From: an uncultured Gemmatimonadales bacterium
Lineage (GTDB): Bacteria; Gemmatimonadota; Gemmatimonadetes; Gemmatimonadales; GWC2-71-9
Assembly (NCBI GenBank): GCA_963844035.1
Contig: CAWJMT010000036.1
Coordinates: 64,001-128,000 of the forward strand
DNA length: 64,000 nucleotides
Reading direction: 5' to 3'
How positions within the stretch are numbered: position 1 is the first letter of the stretch; the number at the start of each line of letters is the position of its first letter. The position numbers and the translations under genes were made by a program. Below are positions 13,399 to 20,386 of this stretch, piece after piece. The notes beneath the pieces were generated by a model that was not told the origin of the DNA, made no database searches, and saw nothing but the letters and a program-made list of their open reading frames with translations.

Positions 13399-13892
13399 GG
13401 ACGGCGCCGCTCGCGCTCGTGCGTCCCACGCGCGCGCCGGTGGTACGTCCCGCATCGCTCGTGGACGTGCCGCAGCTCGAAACGCTGATCGGGCCCTACG
13501 TGGCGACGGGGGACCTGCTACCGCGCAGCAACTACGACCTGTGCCGCCACATCAAGGAGTATGTGGTCGCTCCGGGCCCGGACGGACGCATCGTCGGATG
13601 CGGCTCCCTCAAGGTCTACTCGCAGGCGCTCGGCGAAATCGCAGGGCTCGCCGTGCATCCCGACGCACAGGGGAGCGGCGTGGGCCGCGCCATCATGGAG
13701 GCGCTGATCGCCGAGGCGCGGGCCAGCGGGCTTGCCGAGGTGCTGGCGCTCACGCGCAAGCCGGCATTTTTCTTCAAGCTCGGCTTCCTGCCGTCGGAAA
13801 AGGAGCACTTCCCATTGAAGGTGTGGGCCGACTGCACCCGGTGTCCGCGGCAGAACTGCTGTGACGAGGTGGCGGTCGTCCTGAAGGTCTAG
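13395..13892 (+). CDS. argA: Short GNAT N-acetylglutamate synthase (short ArgA)
   Basis: LLPRS...VGCGSL...EIAGLAV...G.GVG...FFFKLGF...KVWADC..C; GTGA overlap with argD. Confidence 0.8.
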
Positions 13893-14890
13893 CTGTCTTT
13901 CCGCTGCTCCCGGCCGAATCGGTGCGGGGGGTCAACGTCCCGGGGGGACACATAGACCTGGTCCCCCTTCTGCAACGCCAACTCCACGTACCGTTCCCGC
14001 GCCACTTCCACCTCGATCGTCTGGCCGCCGTCCAACCCGTCGAGCTCGACTCGCACCACTGCCCCGAACGGGCGCAGGTGGCGCACGGTCGCCAGCACGG
14101 CATGGGCGCCCTGAGCGGTCCGCGCCAATTCGACGTCGTGTGGCCGCAGCAGCCGTCCGTGGAACAGATTCACGTCGCCGAGGAAACGATACACGAACTC
14201 CGACGCGGGATGCTCGTACACCTCCTCCGGCGTGCCGACTTGCTCGATCCGTCCCTGGTTCATTACCACGATGCGATCCGCCACCTCGAGCGCCTCTTCC
14301 TGGTCGTGGGTGACGAACACGCTGGTGACGTGAATCTCGTCGTGCAGCCGCCGCAGCCAGCGCCGCAGCTCCTTGCGGACCTTCGCATCGAGCGAGCCGA
14401 ACGGCTCATCGAGCAACAGCACGTTGGGCTCCACGGCGAGCGCTCGGGCGAGCGCGACCCGCTGGCGCTGCCCGCCGGACAGCTCGGACGGATCGCGGCC
14501 GGCCACGCCGTCCAGCTGCACCAGCCGCAACAGATCGTGGGCCCGGCGCCGGATCTCGGCTTCGGTGGGGCGCGTGCTGGGTGGCCGCACGCGCAGCCCG
14601 AACGCGACGTTTTCGAGCACGCTCATGTGGCGGAACAGGGCGTAGTGCTGAAACACGAAGCCGACGCGCCGGTCGCGCACGTGGCGCTCGGTGGCATCCT
14701 CGCCGTGGAAATGGATCGTTCCCGAATCCGGGGCCTCCAGTCCGGCGATGATCCGGAGCAGGGTGGTCTTACCGGAGCCCGACGGGCCCAGCAGAGCGAC
14801 CAGCTCCCCCGCCGGAATTTCGAGGCTCACGCCGTTGAGCGCCTGTGAGCCGACAAACACCTTGCTGACGTCGCGAACCTCGATACTCAT
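13889..14890 (-). CDS. cysA: Sulfate/thiosulfate ABC transporter ATPase
   Basis: [47 protein letters not shown] tail. Confidence 0.95.
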
Positions 14891-15789
14891 ACGGCCGCCT
14901 CCTGCTCGTGCGCCGTGTCCGCTCGCCGGCGGAGCTCAAACCACTCCACCAGGCTTCGGGCCACCAGCGTCACAATCGCGAGCAACGCGAGCAGTGACGC
15001 GACCGCGAACGCCGCCGCGAGGTGGTACTCGTTATAGAGAATCTCCACCTGTAAGGGCAAGGTGTTGGTGACCCCCCGGATATGTCCCGACACGACCGAC
15101 ACGGCGCCGAATTCGCCCATGGCGCGCGCATTACAGACGATCACGCCGTACAGCAGGCCCCACTTGATGCTGGGAATCGTAATACGGCGGAAGGTCTGCC
15201 ACCCGCTCGCGCCCAGCACCATCGCCGCCTCCTCCTCCTCCGTGCCCTGCTCCTGCATCAGCGGAATCAGCTCGCGCGCCACGAACGGGACGGTCACGAA
15301 GATCGTGGCGAGCACGATGCCCGGCACGGCGAAGACGATCCCGATCTCGTGGTCGGCGAGCCAGGGGCCGAACCATCCTTGCGCGCCGAACAACAGCACG
15401 AACATCATCCCCGCGATCACGGGCGAGACCGTGAAGGGCACGTCGATCAGCGTCACCAGGAGCTGCTTCCCGGGAAACGTGAACTTCGCGATCGACCACG
15501 CGGCCGCCACGCCGAAGACCAGGTTTAGCGGCACCGCGATCGCCGCCGTCAGCAGCGTGAGCCGGACCGCTGCGAGCGCATCGGGATCGCGCAGCGCCGC
15601 GGCATAGACCCCGACCCCTTTCCTGAATGCCTCGGTCAGCACCACGATCAGCGGGAGGGCAAGGAACAGCGCGAGAAACGCGAGCGCCGTCCCCATCAGG
15701 ATCCAGCGGACCCACGCGGGCTCGGCGGCCGGTCCCGCCCTTCGCGTTCGCGGCGGAGCACTCGTGCGCATCGCGAGGGCTTGAGACAT
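14887..15789 (-). CDS. cysW: Sulfate ABC transporter permease CysW
   Basis: [31 protein letters not shown]. Confidence 0.95.
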
Positions 15790-15791
15790 CG

Positions 15792-16628
15792 CTAGTCCGT
15801 GGCCCCCGTCAGCCGCTTGCGGCTCGAGAGCACATTGATGGCGACGAGCAGCGCGAACGAGATGACCAGCAGCACCACGGCGATCGCCGATGCGCCGGCA
15901 TAGTCATACTGCTCGAGCTTCGTCATGATCAACAGCGGAGCGATTTCCGTGCGCATCGGCATGTTGCCGGAGATGAATACCACCGAGCCGTATTCGCCGA
16001 CCGCCCGCGCAAAGGCGAGGGCAAACCCCGTAATGAGCGCCGGCCGGATGGCGGGCAGCAGCACGCGACGGAACACATCCCAGCGGGTCGCGCCGAGACT
16101 CGCCGCCGCTTCTTCCACGTCCGCCTCGAGGTCCTCGAGTACGGGCTGCAGAGTGCGGATCACGAACGGCAACCCGATGAAGGTCAACGCCACGACGATG
16201 CCGAGCGGCGTGAAGGCGACCTTGATTCCGAGCGGGGCGAGCCACGACCCGAGCCAGCCATTGGGGCCATACAGGGTGGTGAGCGCGATCCCTGCGACCG
16301 CGGTCGGAAGCGCGAACGGCAGGTCCACCAGCGCGTCTACCAGGCGCCGTCCCGGGAACGGGTACCGCACCAGCACCCAGGCCACCACCAATCCGAACAC
16401 CGCACTAATGACGGCCGCTGTCAGCGATGCGAGCAGGCTCAATCGGTACGAGGCGAGCACGCGCGGGGTTGTGACTGCGTCCCACAGACCGCCCCAGCCC
16501 AGGCCCGCGCTCTTTACGAAGATGGTGGACAGCGGGATCAGCACGACAAGTCCGAGGTACGTCACCGTGAACCCGAGTGACAGGCCGAAACCCGGGAGCA
16601 CCGACGCCTGCCTCCGGAGCACGCTCAC
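15792..16628 (-). CDS. cysT: Sulfate ABC transporter permease CysT
   Basis: [33 protein letters not shown]. Confidence 0.95.
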
Positions 16629-17647
16629 GGCTTCGCGACCCGGGCCTGATAGATCTGGTCGAACAACCCCCCGTCCGCGAAGTGCTTTGCTTGAACTTTG
16701 CTCCAGTCGCCGAATACCTCGGCTACTGTGAAGAGCGCGATCTTGGGAAACTGCCCGGCGAATTTGGCCGCGACGGCATCGAGGCGGGGCCGGTAGTAGT
16801 TCTTGGCCGCGATCTCCTGTCCGGCGTCTGTGTAGAGGTACTCGAGATAGGCTTGGGCGACGGCCAGGGTGCCGTGCTTCTTCGCGACCTTCTCGACCAC
16901 CGCAACCGGTGGCTCGGCAAGAACGGTGATCGACGGCATCACAATCTCGACCTTTCCCGATCCTAGCTCACGCACCGCCAACAGGGCCTCGTTCTCCCAC
17001 GCGATCAGGACGTCTCCGATGCCGCGCTCCACGAAGGTGGTCGTCGCACCCCGCGCACCACCGTCCAGCACCGGGACGTTGCCGTAAAGGCTGGTCACGA
17101 ACGCGCGCGCCTTGGCTTCGTCGCCCCCGGGACGTCGCAGCGCGTAGCCCCAGGCGGCCAGGTAGTTCCACCGCGCGCCCCCCGACGTCTTCGGGTTCGG
17201 AGTCACCACGGAAATTCCCGGGCGCACCAGATCGTCCCAGTCCCGGATGTGTTTGGGGTTGCCTTTGCGGACGAGCAAAACGATGGTCGATGTGTACGGC
17301 GTACTGTTGTGCGGAAGCCGCGATTGCCAGTCGGGCGGGATCAGGCCGCTCCGCGCGCTGATCTGGTCGATGTCGCCTGCCAGCGCGAGCGTCACCACAT
17401 CTGCGCCGAGTCCGTCGATTACGGCGCGCGCTTGCGATCCCGAGCCCCCATGGGATTGGCGGATCGTGACGTCCTGACCGGTCTTCTCCTTCCAATAGCG
17501 GACGAACGCCGCGTTGTACGACTGGTACAGCTCACGCGTTGGATCGTACGACACGTTGAGCAGCGTGACGGGCTTTTGGGCTGGCGCGGGCGTGATCGCG
17601 GAAACCGCGAGCGCGACCAGCAATGGGAGCGTCATATGTCGAGTCAT
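16625..17647 (-). CDS. sbp: Sulfate-binding periplasmic protein
   Basis: [37 protein letters not shown]. Confidence 0.95.
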
Positions 17648-17657
17648 GTATGCTCCC

Positions 17658-19010
17658 TCAAAACGCCTGTTGGATGCGGACGACGAAGAAATTCTCATTG
17701 GTGCGATTGCCGGTCGCGGCCCCAGCGGCGAAGCGCGTCCGTTCGTAGTTCACCGCGAAGTGCACCGCGGGCGCGAGGTGCCACTTGATGCCTGCCCCCC
17801 ACGCCTTCGCGCTGGTCACGGAATTCCCCACGGCCGCAAAGATGGGAAACGCGTCCGCGTCCGGAAGCAACTCACTGTAGCGGGCGCCGAGCTCCAGAGC
17901 CCCCCAATTCCGTTTCTTGGGATCGAACGGTCGCTTCGGGGTGACCGTAGCGAACGAGGCTTTCTCGCCGGTGACAAACCACGAGGCGGCCACCTGCCAG
18001 CCGCGACTCGTCAGGCGGCTGCCGGCGGTCCCGCGCGTGACATCCTGCTCAGATATGGAGTATTCGCCGAGTACACCGATCGGGCCACCGTACCAATACG
18101 CCTGCGGCGCGTAACGGATACGGCGTCCGTTCGCGACCGTGCTGTCGCGGTAGCGGAACATCGGCTGCTGGCCGGGCGTCACGTATGTCGGCAACGCGCT
18201 GGCCGCGAGTGTACCGCGCTCGATCCCGGTGCTGGCGGCAATCCCCACTCCCAGGCCACCCACTTTGGCGAACACGCGCGCCTCGAAATCCTTGTCGTTC
18301 GTCAGGTCCGCATCCCCGTTCCCCAGATCCGGTACGCCGTTGAAGACCCCGACGGCGTACGACAAGTGCCCTCCCGCGAGATCGCCGACCGCCTGCAGAC
18401 CGACGTCGCGGTTCGGCACCAGGTTGGTCGGCAGTCCGCGCTCGACGAACCGGATGTCCGTCGCCGACTGCAGACGCTCGAGACCGAGCGGCGGCTTCGT
18501 CTTGCCGGCGCGCAGCCCGAACTGTGCGGCAGGCCGGAAGTCCAGGTAGGCGTCGAACAGCACCACCCGGCCCTGCCCGAAATCGGGCGTCAGCCGCAGC
18601 GTGAAGTACTTCCACACCGTGGCGTCGAGGACTGGGCGAGCGCGCCGCAGGCCCAGGGTGGTGTTGCCGAGCGTCGCTGGGGCTTCGCCGGGGAAAGAGC
18701 GCCCATCGGCCTGGATGTAGGCGCGAAACTTGAGCTGATACGCACCGTCTGCCGACTTGATGAGGAACCCCTCCTTTCCCGCCGCTACGCGGGGTTGCTG
18801 CTTCGCCGCCGCGGCAACGCTGTCCTGCTTGAGCTCCAGGAGACGCGCGAGAATGCGCACCTTCTGGTCGAGCTGCTCCAGTCGTTCCCCGACGCTCGGT
18901 TGTGAGTCGCGCAGCGCGGCCGTGTCCTGCTGCGCCGCGCCCGATTGCGCCGCACCAGCCAACCCCAGGATGCTGATCACCAATGCCACCGACCAATGAG
19001 CCCTGTACAT
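17658..19010 (-). CDS. OprO/OprP-family anion-selective porin, first gene of the sulfate operon
   Basis: Signal peptide, short coiled coil, LRRARP, PDFGQG, GLERLQS, PNRDVG, C-terminal QQAF; GAGGAG SD. Confidence 0.85.
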
Positions 19011-19049
19011 GGAATCGCTCGCTCCTCGTCCATTGAGATGAACCCGCAC

Positions 19050-19080
19050 AAAAAACCCGGTCACGTTTGGGGTGGCCGGG
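19050..19080 (-). terminator. Intrinsic terminator (attenuator 3:4 hairpin) in the sulfate operon leader
   Basis: Minus strand CCCGGCCAC-CCCAAAC-GTGACCGGG-TTTTTT, 40 nt upstream of the porin ATG. Confidence 0.85.
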
Positions 19081-19121
19081 CCTGGGATCAGCTCGATTGG
19101 CGGAGAGGCTTGAGCGATTCC

Positions 19122-19214
19122 TCACATCGACAATGCGCGTACCATGGCGCCCGTCCAACCCTGAGGCTGGCGGGGACAACAACACATGGGACAACAGCGC
19201 AGCGCGATGATCAT
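19122..19214 (-). CDS. Cys-rich leader peptide (30 aa) MIIALRCCPMCCCPRQPQGWTGAMVRALSM
   Basis: Manual translation; 5 Cys codons, all TGT; lies between the promoter and the terminator. Confidence 0.8.
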   Translation of the reverse strand: MIIALRCCPMCCCPRQPQGWTGAMVRALSM

Positions 19215-19224
19215 GAGGCGGTAC

Positions 19225-19253
19225 AAGCTAGAGTCCTCCCTTGGGCAAGTCAA
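19225..19253 (-). promoter_or_regulatory. sigma70-type promoter TTGACT-17-TAGCTT for the leader and sulfate operon
   Basis: -35 at 19253-19248, -10 at 19230-19225, 10 nt before the leader ATG. Confidence 0.7.
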
Positions 19254-19271: not shown

Positions 19272-19301
19272 TTGACACAGCCGAAGCGGGACGCTGAGAT
19301 T
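19272..19301 (+). promoter_or_regulatory. Possible divergent promoter TTGACA-18-GAGATT just before ATG 19307
   Basis: Perfect -35, imperfect -10, no SD. Confidence 0.4.
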
Positions 19302-19306
19302 GCCGC

Positions 19307-20386
19307 ATGACCAGCCCAGCGTTCGGCCGCTTCTTCCTCCCCGGTCCCACCGATGTCCATCCCGATGTGCTTGCGGCCATGGAGCGGCCCATGATCGGGC
19401 ACCGCTCGAGCGCGATGGAGCAGCTCATGGGCGGCATGGCGGCGCCGCTTGGCCGGCTGTTCCGCACGTCTCGTCCGGTGCTCGTCGGTACCGCCTCGGC
19501 AACGGGGTTCATGGAGATGGCCGTCCGCAACGGCGTGGCGCGCCGCGCCCTCTCCCTCGTGAACGGCGCGTTCAGCGAGCGATTCGCCGACATGGTCGGC
19601 GCTTCTGGGAAGGAGTGCATCCGGCTCGAGGTGCCGCTCGGGAGCGCCGTGGAGCCTGACCTGCTGCGGGACGCGTTGCGCCGCACGCCGGTCGACGCCG
19701 TCACGCTCGTACACTCGGAGACCTCGACGGGCGTGCTGCAGGACGTCGCGGCGCTCGCCGCCGTGGTTCGAGAGTTCGACAACGTGCTCCTGCTTGTGGA
19801 CGCGGTCACATCGCTTGCCGGCTCCCCGGTCGAGCACGATCGCTGGGGCCTGGACTTCACGTTCACCGGCTCGCAAAAGGCGCTCGCCCTCCCGCCCGGC
19901 CTGGCGCTCGGCGTGGCCTCCGAGCGGATGCTCGAGCGGGCGAAAACCCTGCACGGGCGGGGCCTGTATTTCGACCTGGTGAGCTTCGAAGAAGCGACGC
20001 GGAAATCGCAGCCCACCAACACTCCCGCTCTCTCACTGTTTTACGCGCTCGAGGCGCAGCTTGCCCGCATCGAGCGGGAAGGCGGCGTCGAGGCCCGCTG
20101 GCAACGCCACGACGCGATGCGCCGGCGGGTGGAGGCGTGGAGCGAGCCGCACGGCGTCCGCTATGTCCCCCCCGAAGGGCGACGCAGCTGGACCGTGTCG
20201 TGCCTCCAGGTGCCCGCAGGGAAGAAATCGCAGGAGATCGTTGGCGCGCTGCAAAAGAAGGGCTGGACCATCGGCGGCGGGTACGGGGCCTTGAAAGACA
20301 AGACGATCCGCATCGGCCACATGGGGGATCACACGGTCGCGGCGCTCGACGAGCTGCTGGCCTTGGTCGCGCAGACGCTTGTATGA
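19307..20386 (+). CDS. Class V PLP aminotransferase (serine-pyruvate/alanine-glyoxylate type; likely acts as phosphoserine aminotransferase)
   Basis: LPGPT, HSETSTG, VDAVTS, GSQKALALPPG, IRIGHMG; ATGA-coupled to serA. Confidence 0.88.
   Translation: MTSPAFGRFFLPGPTDVHPDVLAAMERPMIGHRSSAMEQLMGGMAAPLGRLFRTSRPVLVGTASATGFMEMAVRNGVARRALSLVNGAFSERFADMVGASGKECIRLEVPLGSAVEPDLLRDALRRTPVDAVTLVHSETSTGVLQDVAALAAVVREFDNVLLLVDAVTSLAGSPVEHDRWGLDFTFTGSQKALALPPGLALGVASERMLERAKTLHGRGLYFDLVSFEEATRKSQPTNTPALSLFYALEAQLARIEREGGVEARWQRHDAMRRRVEAWSEPHGVRYVPPEGRRSWTVSCLQVPAGKKSQEIVGALQKKGWTIGGGYGALKDKTIRIGHMGDHTVAALDELLALVAQTLV

Follow-up and report, generated by a model that had tools for sequence, protein, structure and literature searches.

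A conserved poly-cysteine leader before a porin and sulfate ABC transporter operon of Gemmatimonadales, most likely a ribosome-mediated transcription attenuator

Leader-peptide transcription attenuators such as trpL and hisL of E. coli are characterized by a short upstream ORF (uORF) with a run of cognate codons, by mutually exclusive 1:2, 2:3 and 3:4 helices and by an intrinsic terminator. For cysteine, leaderless poly-Cys small ORFs constitute the Cys ribulon of mycobacteria; one of them, Ms5788A, acts by sequestration of the Shine-Dalgarno (SD) sequence and not by termination, while the mechanism at the other loci is not resolved in the available part of that report (10.1101/834739). In the available text of a further study, actinobacterial Cys leaders have no conserved terminator behind them (PMC1262725), and the accessible portion of another treats the mycobacterial ones as translational (PMC13236596). 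In Rhodobacterales, uORFC-8-2 is described, in the available text, as a predicted two-Cys uORF with an intrinsic terminator before cysS (PMC8632094). As far as the accessible portions of these sources go, Cys attenuation is demonstrated only at the translational level, in mycobacteria, and the terminator type is predicted only before cysS, in Rhodobacterales.

The element presented here is located in a window of 64,000 nt (positions 64,001 to 128,000 of contig CAWJMT010000036.1, from an uncultured Gemmatimonadales bacterium), upstream of an operon for a porin and a sulfate ABC transporter. It is a real and conserved element, and very probably operates as a Cys-tRNA-sensing, ribosome-mediated transcription attenuator of porin-sbp-cysTWA. 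The three components of trpL and hisL are all predicted in it, and the same kind of stall scan gives the same profile; it differs in that it would sense Cys, is probably leaderless and would control the uptake of a precursor (sulfate), and also in that region 2 lies inside the 30-codon ORF, with the stop codon 27 nt further on. With the mycobacterial ribulon it shares leaderless poly-Cys ORFs, present as independent copies before several sulfur operons. In the available descriptions, however, the Cys codons of the mycobacterial type pair with the downstream SD and there is no terminator, whereas in the window the modelled SD state is independent of the ribosome and both a terminator and an antiterminator are predicted. 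Likewise, uORFC-8-2 is a predicted Cys-codon uORF with an intrinsic terminator and the same proposed mechanism, but the available text confines it to cysS in alphaproteobacteria, with two mostly UGC codons, the tandem Cys at 14-15 and no antiterminator named (PMC8632094). The window element belongs to Gemmatimonadales, has its Cys run at 11-13 and, across its family, porin, sbp or TauE genes downstream; the two are set apart by description, not by sequence.

The initial annotation knew of no classical Cys attenuator on a sulfate transporter in this lineage, and in the openly accessible literature no description was found for Gemmatimonadota or for a sulfate transporter, although comparative attenuation surveys may list further Cys leaders. 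As a claim of novelty it was nevertheless overstated, considering the terminator-type Cys uORF predicted before cysS in the available part of PMC8632094. The attenuation principle is textbook, and the surprise is therefore limited. Should the wider ribulon reading given further below hold, this element would rank as the first cysteine attenuator of the terminator type for which an antiterminator is defined, and also as a natural example of mutual replacement between an RNA switch and a transcription factor. The element represents a compact, well-sampled (61 variants) switch of the predicted terminator type that is testable in a surrogate host, and it suggests a way in which sulfur uptake may be regulated in a phylum that has been little studied. 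Moreover, Rrf2 and leader versions of one operon exist side by side, which makes regulator replacement testable.

Anatomy of the leader and its operon

The features of the locus, all on the minus strand of the window, are the following:
13889..17647, minus: sbp, cysT, cysW and cysA-like genes of a sulfate ABC transporter (NCBIfam)
17658..19010, minus: O/P-family porin, the operon's first gene (PF07396, E 1.7e-28)
19050..19064, minus: region 4 GUGACCGGG plus U6 (19055-19050), predicted intrinsic terminator
19070..19081, minus: region 3 GCCCGGCCACCC, terminator 5' arm and partner of region 2
19105..19123, minus: small hairpin GAGG/CCUC spanning the stop codon, in the antiterminator loop (from folding)
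19149..19161, minus: region 2 GGGUUGGACGGGC, within the ORF (codons 18-22), partner of region 3 under the modelled stall
19165..19174, minus: region 1, anti-antiterminator arm, paired with region 2 in the free fold
19176..19184, minus: sensor Cys run TGT TGT TGT, codons 11-13, with the modelled antiterminator maximum when the A site is on C11-P14
19214-19122, minus: leader ORF of 30 codons, beginning MIIALRCCPMCCCP…, with ATG at 19214 and TGA at 19124-19122
19225..19230, minus: predicted -10 box TAGCTT (TAnnnT), conserved, 10 nt 5' of the leader ATG
19248..19253, minus: predicted -35 box TTGACT, of which TTGAC is invariant in 5/5 aligned congeners

The operon had been named porin-sbp-cysTWA, and this identity holds for the porin and for sbp, cysT and cysW, which exceed their NCBIfam cut-offs; the ATPase is CysA-like, passing the subfamily cut-off TIGR00968 while scoring too low for the CysA equivalog cut-off. 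In 4 of 6 loci, the porin has its closest named relatives in Gemmatimonadales or Gemmatimonadota. Upstream, an aminotransferase gene and serA are transcribed divergently. A promoter-like site, TTGACA-17-TGAGAT (window 19272-19307, plus strand), stands back-to-back with the leader promoter; the aminotransferase-serA operon, possibly leaderless too, has its ATG about 7 nt further on. The GTGTCAAC site is kept in congeners.

Read from the minus strand, the 30-codon ORF is as the initial annotation gave it, with Cys at codons 7, 8, 11, 12 and 13, every one of them TGT. The genome disfavours this codon, as had been claimed for this GC-rich DNA: TGT accounts for 856 of 5233 Cys codons (16%) in 1983 probable genes. 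In 11 family leaders retrieved by genome searches favouring neither codon, 40 of 49 Cys codons are TGT. This preference could reflect the pairing of UGU with region 2 that is seen in the folds, or a slower wobble decoding by tRNA-Cys(GCA), the only tRNA-Cys anticodon found in this genome (2 genes).

The letters TTGACT and TAGCTT, separated by 17 nt and followed by 10 nt and the ATG, are present where they had been placed; a consensus promoter/terminator scan did not call this promoter in the window, and the -10 box matches the consensus at 3/6 positions. Across the genome, TAnnnT occurs 6-9 nt 5' of 9.5% of 1175 first ATGs, in comparison with 0.55% of 9044 internal ones, and this excess makes leaderless starts look common. 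In this test, in which AUG at +1 marks a leaderless start, the spacing of 10 nt in the window lies past the genome-wide peak of 6-9 nt and shows a smaller excess (0.85% of first against 0.12% of internal ATGs). The leader ORF is probably leaderless, or nearly so, with its start at 19214. The description of the ORF as lacking an SD is true for the ATG, but 12 nt upstream there is an in-frame TTG preceded by GGAGG at 8 nt, though this GGAGG falls within the promoter spacer.

Regions 1-4 and the U6 tract were all recovered at the coordinates first assigned to them, upstream of the porin ATG (19010). The predicted stability is -13.9 kcal/mol for the terminator and -21.9 kcal/mol for the 2:3 duplex. 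The bulged terminator of the window was not called by a simple consensus scan, and the whole-leader fold is no more stable than its own shuffles (z -0.94). In the small GAGG/CCUC hairpin, a G-C pair is replaced by A-U, a double change, in 3 of 45 rows.

Modelled response to ribosome position

Full-length folding of 8 leaders gave the terminator in every state. For this reason, and because the whole-leader fold carries no stability signal, a truncated nascent RNA was used: the RNA was cut just past region 3, and a ribosome footprint of 28 nt was held single-stranded. In the window, the modelled probability that region 3 is captured was 0.81-0.85 with the A site on C11-P14, in comparison with 0.10 for the ribosome-free RNA, 0.10-0.13 on codons 17-22 and 0.36 at the stop codon. 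Stalls on C7-C8 gave a partial signal, 0.37-0.48 in this window profile and 0.3-0.5 in the models. Thus the fold with and without a stalled ribosome behaves as had been proposed, since the stall on C11-P14 yields 2:3 and the free RNA does not. As for the trigger, the model identifies C11-C13 as the sensor, and C7/C8 contribute only partially.

Assumed footprint lengths shorter or longer than 28 nt move the switch window to C13-R15 or M10-P14, and with a +10 footprint the modelled switch begins only at C12-C13. When the stretch from the Cys run to region 3 was subjected to dinucleotide shuffling, none of 150 shuffles matched the switch amplitude, while 5/150 matched the stall value alone. In 60 family members, P(2:3) exceeded 0.5 in 39, 45 and 53 when the ribosome was stalled on the run's first, second and last Cys, respectively, in 16 when it was stalled three codons earlier, in 2 when the RNA was free and in 2 with the ribosome at the stop codon. 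The same kind of stall scan, applied to E. coli trpL and hisL as controls, gave high values at the sensor and zero at the stop, as expected. A generic stall scan of unrelated Cys leaders produced a clean on/off profile in only about 5 of 19; its automatic choice of terminator was wrong for one locus (L062) and over-extended for the window.

In the full-length RNA of the window under stall, the terminator is favoured over the antiterminator by 7.3 kcal/mol. As the terminator wins at equilibrium in every state, antitermination must be kinetic, which is not unusual: in the same comparison, the terminator is favoured by 4.8 kcal/mol in trpL and by 28 kcal/mol in hisL.

On this basis, transcription would start from TTGACT-17-TAGCTT, and a ribosome coupled to the polymerase would initiate leaderless, or nearly so, at 19214. 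When cysteine is replete, the model predicts that, if the ribosome is absent or has reached the stop codon, 1:2 pairs and leaves region 3 available to the 3:4 terminator, the formation of which would end transcription at about 19050. When charged tRNA-Cys is scarce, the modelled ribosome stalls at the Cys run with the A site on C11-P14 and region 1 covered; 2:3 would then form before region 4 is made, the terminator would be blocked and the uptake genes would be transcribed, so that the operon would respond to cysteine. The trp/his-type 1:2, 2:3 and 3:4 logic of the initial annotation passes the folding, conservation and shuffle tests, but the geometry departs from that of trp. Since region 2 is inside the ORF, a ribosome at the stop leaves it uncovered, and termination relies on 1:2 re-forming behind the ribosome.

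Every in-silico-testable feature of classical leader-peptide transcription attenuators is found in the modelled element. An intrinsic terminator is predicted between leader and first gene (hairpin plus U6, with covariation), and an antiterminator excluding it is indicated by the 2:3 duplex and a swap test, its column covariation not being significant. In silico, the antiterminator is favoured only by stalls at the sensor codons, an outcome that depends on the assumed footprint.

Conservation, covariation and cargo exchange

A close porin was found in seven relatives. The four of the same genus carry the promoter, the Cys run, GGGTTGGACGG and the terminator, with the leader ATG 7-8 nt past the -10 box; in the other three the element was not seen in the DNA fetched. 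A metagenome pattern scan, in which the Cys, region 2 and region 3 cores were fixed and the promoter, ATG, region 4 and U tract were left free, returned at least 120 loci, about half of which had no in-frame ATG or terminator arms and were excluded as chance matches. Together, metagenome and genome loci gave 75 that pass an ATG-plus-terminator-arm filter, corresponding to 61 distinct sequences; one with a premature stop (L092) was omitted from folding. The first downstream match in these 61 is TauE in 48, the porin in 5, sbp in 3 and a small ORF preceding the porin in 1, with none in 4. Homologous leaders keep the Cys codons and stems, which the initial annotation had proposed to look for in relatives; the metagenome members were picked by their Cys, region 2 and region 3 motifs, and their conservation is thus partly circular. 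The GGACGG core of region 2 is read in frames 0, 1 and 2 in 17, 42 and 2 of the 61 members, which places the constraint on the RNA; the peptide past the Cys run is not what is conserved.

In three congeners (L282-L284; genomes G001, G004 and G005), a TauE-type gene comes after the same leader and porin where the window has sbp-cysTWA, so that the cargo behind the leader has been exchanged. A separate motif, GACCGGACnnCCGGARG, is located just 5' of the sulfate porin gene at 10 loci of several genera (L003:1400, L005, L006, L258:3699, L259:201, L261, L264:3730, L276:1023, L280:3738 and L281:3709); it is absent from this genome and had no Rfam match in the 4 loci tested.

For the core family, RNAalifold returns the 2:3 helix as its consensus; the helix is nearly invariant, with 0/8 pairs compensated. 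A sequence-only model matched 14 of 28 genomes of a neighbouring genus and 16 of 151 genomes of the family, of which 8 matches are weak (E 5e-7 to 3e-4). These eight distant homologues (L305-L312, in G175, G121, G063, G027, G167, G024, G018 and G030) follow short ORFs rich in Met and Cys; the gene they stand before encodes an O-acetylhomoserine sulfhydrylase (metY; TIGR01326, over cut-off) in 7 and is aspartokinase-like (by eye) in 1. Their regions 2 and 3 change in step, for example GGAGUGGAC/GUCCACUCC and GGGUGGACUG/CGGUUCACCC. In a swap test comparing cognate with permuted 2:3 duplexes, in which both could pick their partner window equally freely, the cognate ones were more stable over 16 homologues (p=5e-5) and also with one per genus (n=8; p=0.005), a choice that removes kinship only partly. 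The 2:3 register differs by one base between the core and distant groups, and fixed-register column covariation of 2:3 including the distant members was not significant (215/500 shuffles). In the terminator of the 16 homologues, 97.7% of cells are paired, with 6 double changes and 4/500 shuffles as high. The expected covarying stems were hence obtained for the 3:4 terminator and, by the swap test, for 2:3, but not for 2:3 by columns. The distant metY-type members often retain 2:3 when free or at the stop, which speaks against a uniform mechanism. Several of L305-L312 sit behind another hairpin and a shared motif, AAAGAGCTAAA, and these loci had no Rfam match at gathering score.

One metatranscriptome contained 10% of the sampled words, and a 151-nt contig of a relative spans 19037-19193 with 5 differences and 6 gaps. 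The contigs of this relative listed are 151-267 nt long and cannot show ends, strand or level, so this RNA contig was not used as evidence.

Competing explanations, Rrf2 and further leaders

A translational leader of the mycobacterial kind, in which stalling frees the porin's ribosome-binding site and the hairpin is secondary, has a precedent in Ms5788A, which in the available text acts translationally (10.1101/834739), and the porin SD is indeed predicted to be largely paired. Its modelled accessibility, however, is independent of ribosome position (0.21-0.23 in four states), and what is conserved and covaries is the hairpin with the U tract, whereas the spacing to the following gene is very variable; we regard this explanation as very improbable. 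Alternatively, the Cys-rich peptide itself might be what the locus serves to make, as a binder of metals or thiols or as an arrest peptide; the terminator would then simply end its transcript, with constitutive leakage into the operon. Metal binding by CC..CCC motifs is conceivable, and a GWTD-like motif recurs in many members, but it reads GWTD, RVGRT or GLDGR depending on the frame, and what is kept is confined to the Cys run and its position. As the peptide has no Pfam match and the 2:3 complementarity co-varies with region 3, this seems very improbable.

The least probable account makes a transcription factor or a metabolite-binding RNA the main control and the ORF incidental. Against such an RNA, Rfam gave no match in the window at gathering score. 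In 10 related loci at E<=0.5 there was no match to a leader- or T-box-named family, the matches being one to SAM_alpha and three to miRNA models, each below cut-off, and 9 further related loci gave none. A transcription factor is brought to mind by the Rrf2 genes and palindromic sites of related operons, and by the three Rrf2 genes over cut-off in this genome, one of them beside rhodanese-like and cysteine-synthase-like ORFs. Yet the Rrf2 subfamily of sulfate operons, found in 18 of 301 genomes, was found in 0 of 7 of this genus, and throughout the family a Cys run, in frame with an ATG start, stays at a constant spacing from region 2. A factor might nevertheless act at the promoter in addition to the attenuator.

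Gene sbp scores above cut-off in 28 of 301 genomes; three are of this genus, and all three have the leader. Among the 25 sbp operons outside the genus, an Rrf2 gene stands just upstream in 14 (13 scanned plus one from separate look-ups), and the other 11 comprise 7 in or behind longer cys clusters (by eye), 3 cut short and 1 with the palindrome alone. The leader was not seen in any of these 25 in up to 5.4 kb fetched. Two genomes (G123 and G296) possess both this Rrf2 subfamily and a Cys leader at another operon; the exclusion between Rrf2 and leader is therefore per operon, not per genome. The subfamily scores below the CymR and IscR cut-offs. AT-rich palindromes of the TACTCTA..TAGAGTA type lie between the Rrf2 gene and the sulfate operon at L007, L264, L265, L273 and L276, and are a candidate operator of this subfamily. 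In the present genome, an Rrf2 gene at G000:C37:285579-288980 (L222) is followed by the rhodanese-like and cysteine-synthase-like ORFs (by eye), possibly a factor-controlled sulfur operon.

A promoter-plus-TGYx3 pattern gave 54 rows (48 sites by hand count) in 38 of 301 family genomes, in comparison with 22 for the reversed control. Of the 47 sites examined (G086 was left out), 23 have, 6-11 nt past the -10 box, the start of an in-frame Cys ORF with 20-36 codons, one being cut by the contig end; the 24 dropped (long genes, out-of-frame runs, TTG/GTG starts) have no ATG-initiated short in-frame Cys ORF. With downstream DNA, 17 of 22 leaders precede sulfur genes (porin 5, sbp 1, TauE 5, cysH 5, rhodanese 1), another 3 stand before an ATP-grasp-like gene and the last 2 have no gene assignment. 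There is perhaps an even chance that, in Gemmatimonadota, leaderless poly-Cys ORFs followed by intrinsic terminators make up a cysteine "ribulon" that acts on transcription, in which one RNA switch scaffold (GGRNUGGAC / GGCCCGG..CACCC) moved among sulfate porin-ABC, TauE and metY genes, with the sensor codons retuned from Cys to Met/Cys, and at the sulfate operon occupies the position of the Rrf2 repressor of sister genera.

This genome contains 39 short poly-Cys ORFs, 4 of which have a U tract behind them; two of these four are in an AT-rich island and two head sulfur operons. A second, non-homologous poly-Cys leader of 33 codons, MRLCCNAIGCCCP…, is located at G000:C4:328198-328400 (L039:1501-1700; C4:328234), with a hairpin of -31.7 kcal/mol, followed by cysH, siroheme synthase genes and a sulfite-reductase-like gene (by eye). 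In the model, the antiterminator of this leader forms again close to the stop. Further poly-Cys leaders are present in other families of the phylum. Those at L206, L217, L212, L216 and L218 have terminators and stand before genes for carbonic anhydrase (2), DsbD-N/thioredoxin, a PF03601 membrane protein and a dicarboxylate-symporter-family protein, possibly unrecognised members of a sulfur regulon. Finally, a leaderless Leu-rich leader with a terminator, MQLAFALPLLLLVLLLVLIG…, was observed on the minus strand of L041 (G187:C3) before a gene that is isopropylmalate-synthase-like by eye, and is a candidate Leu attenuator.
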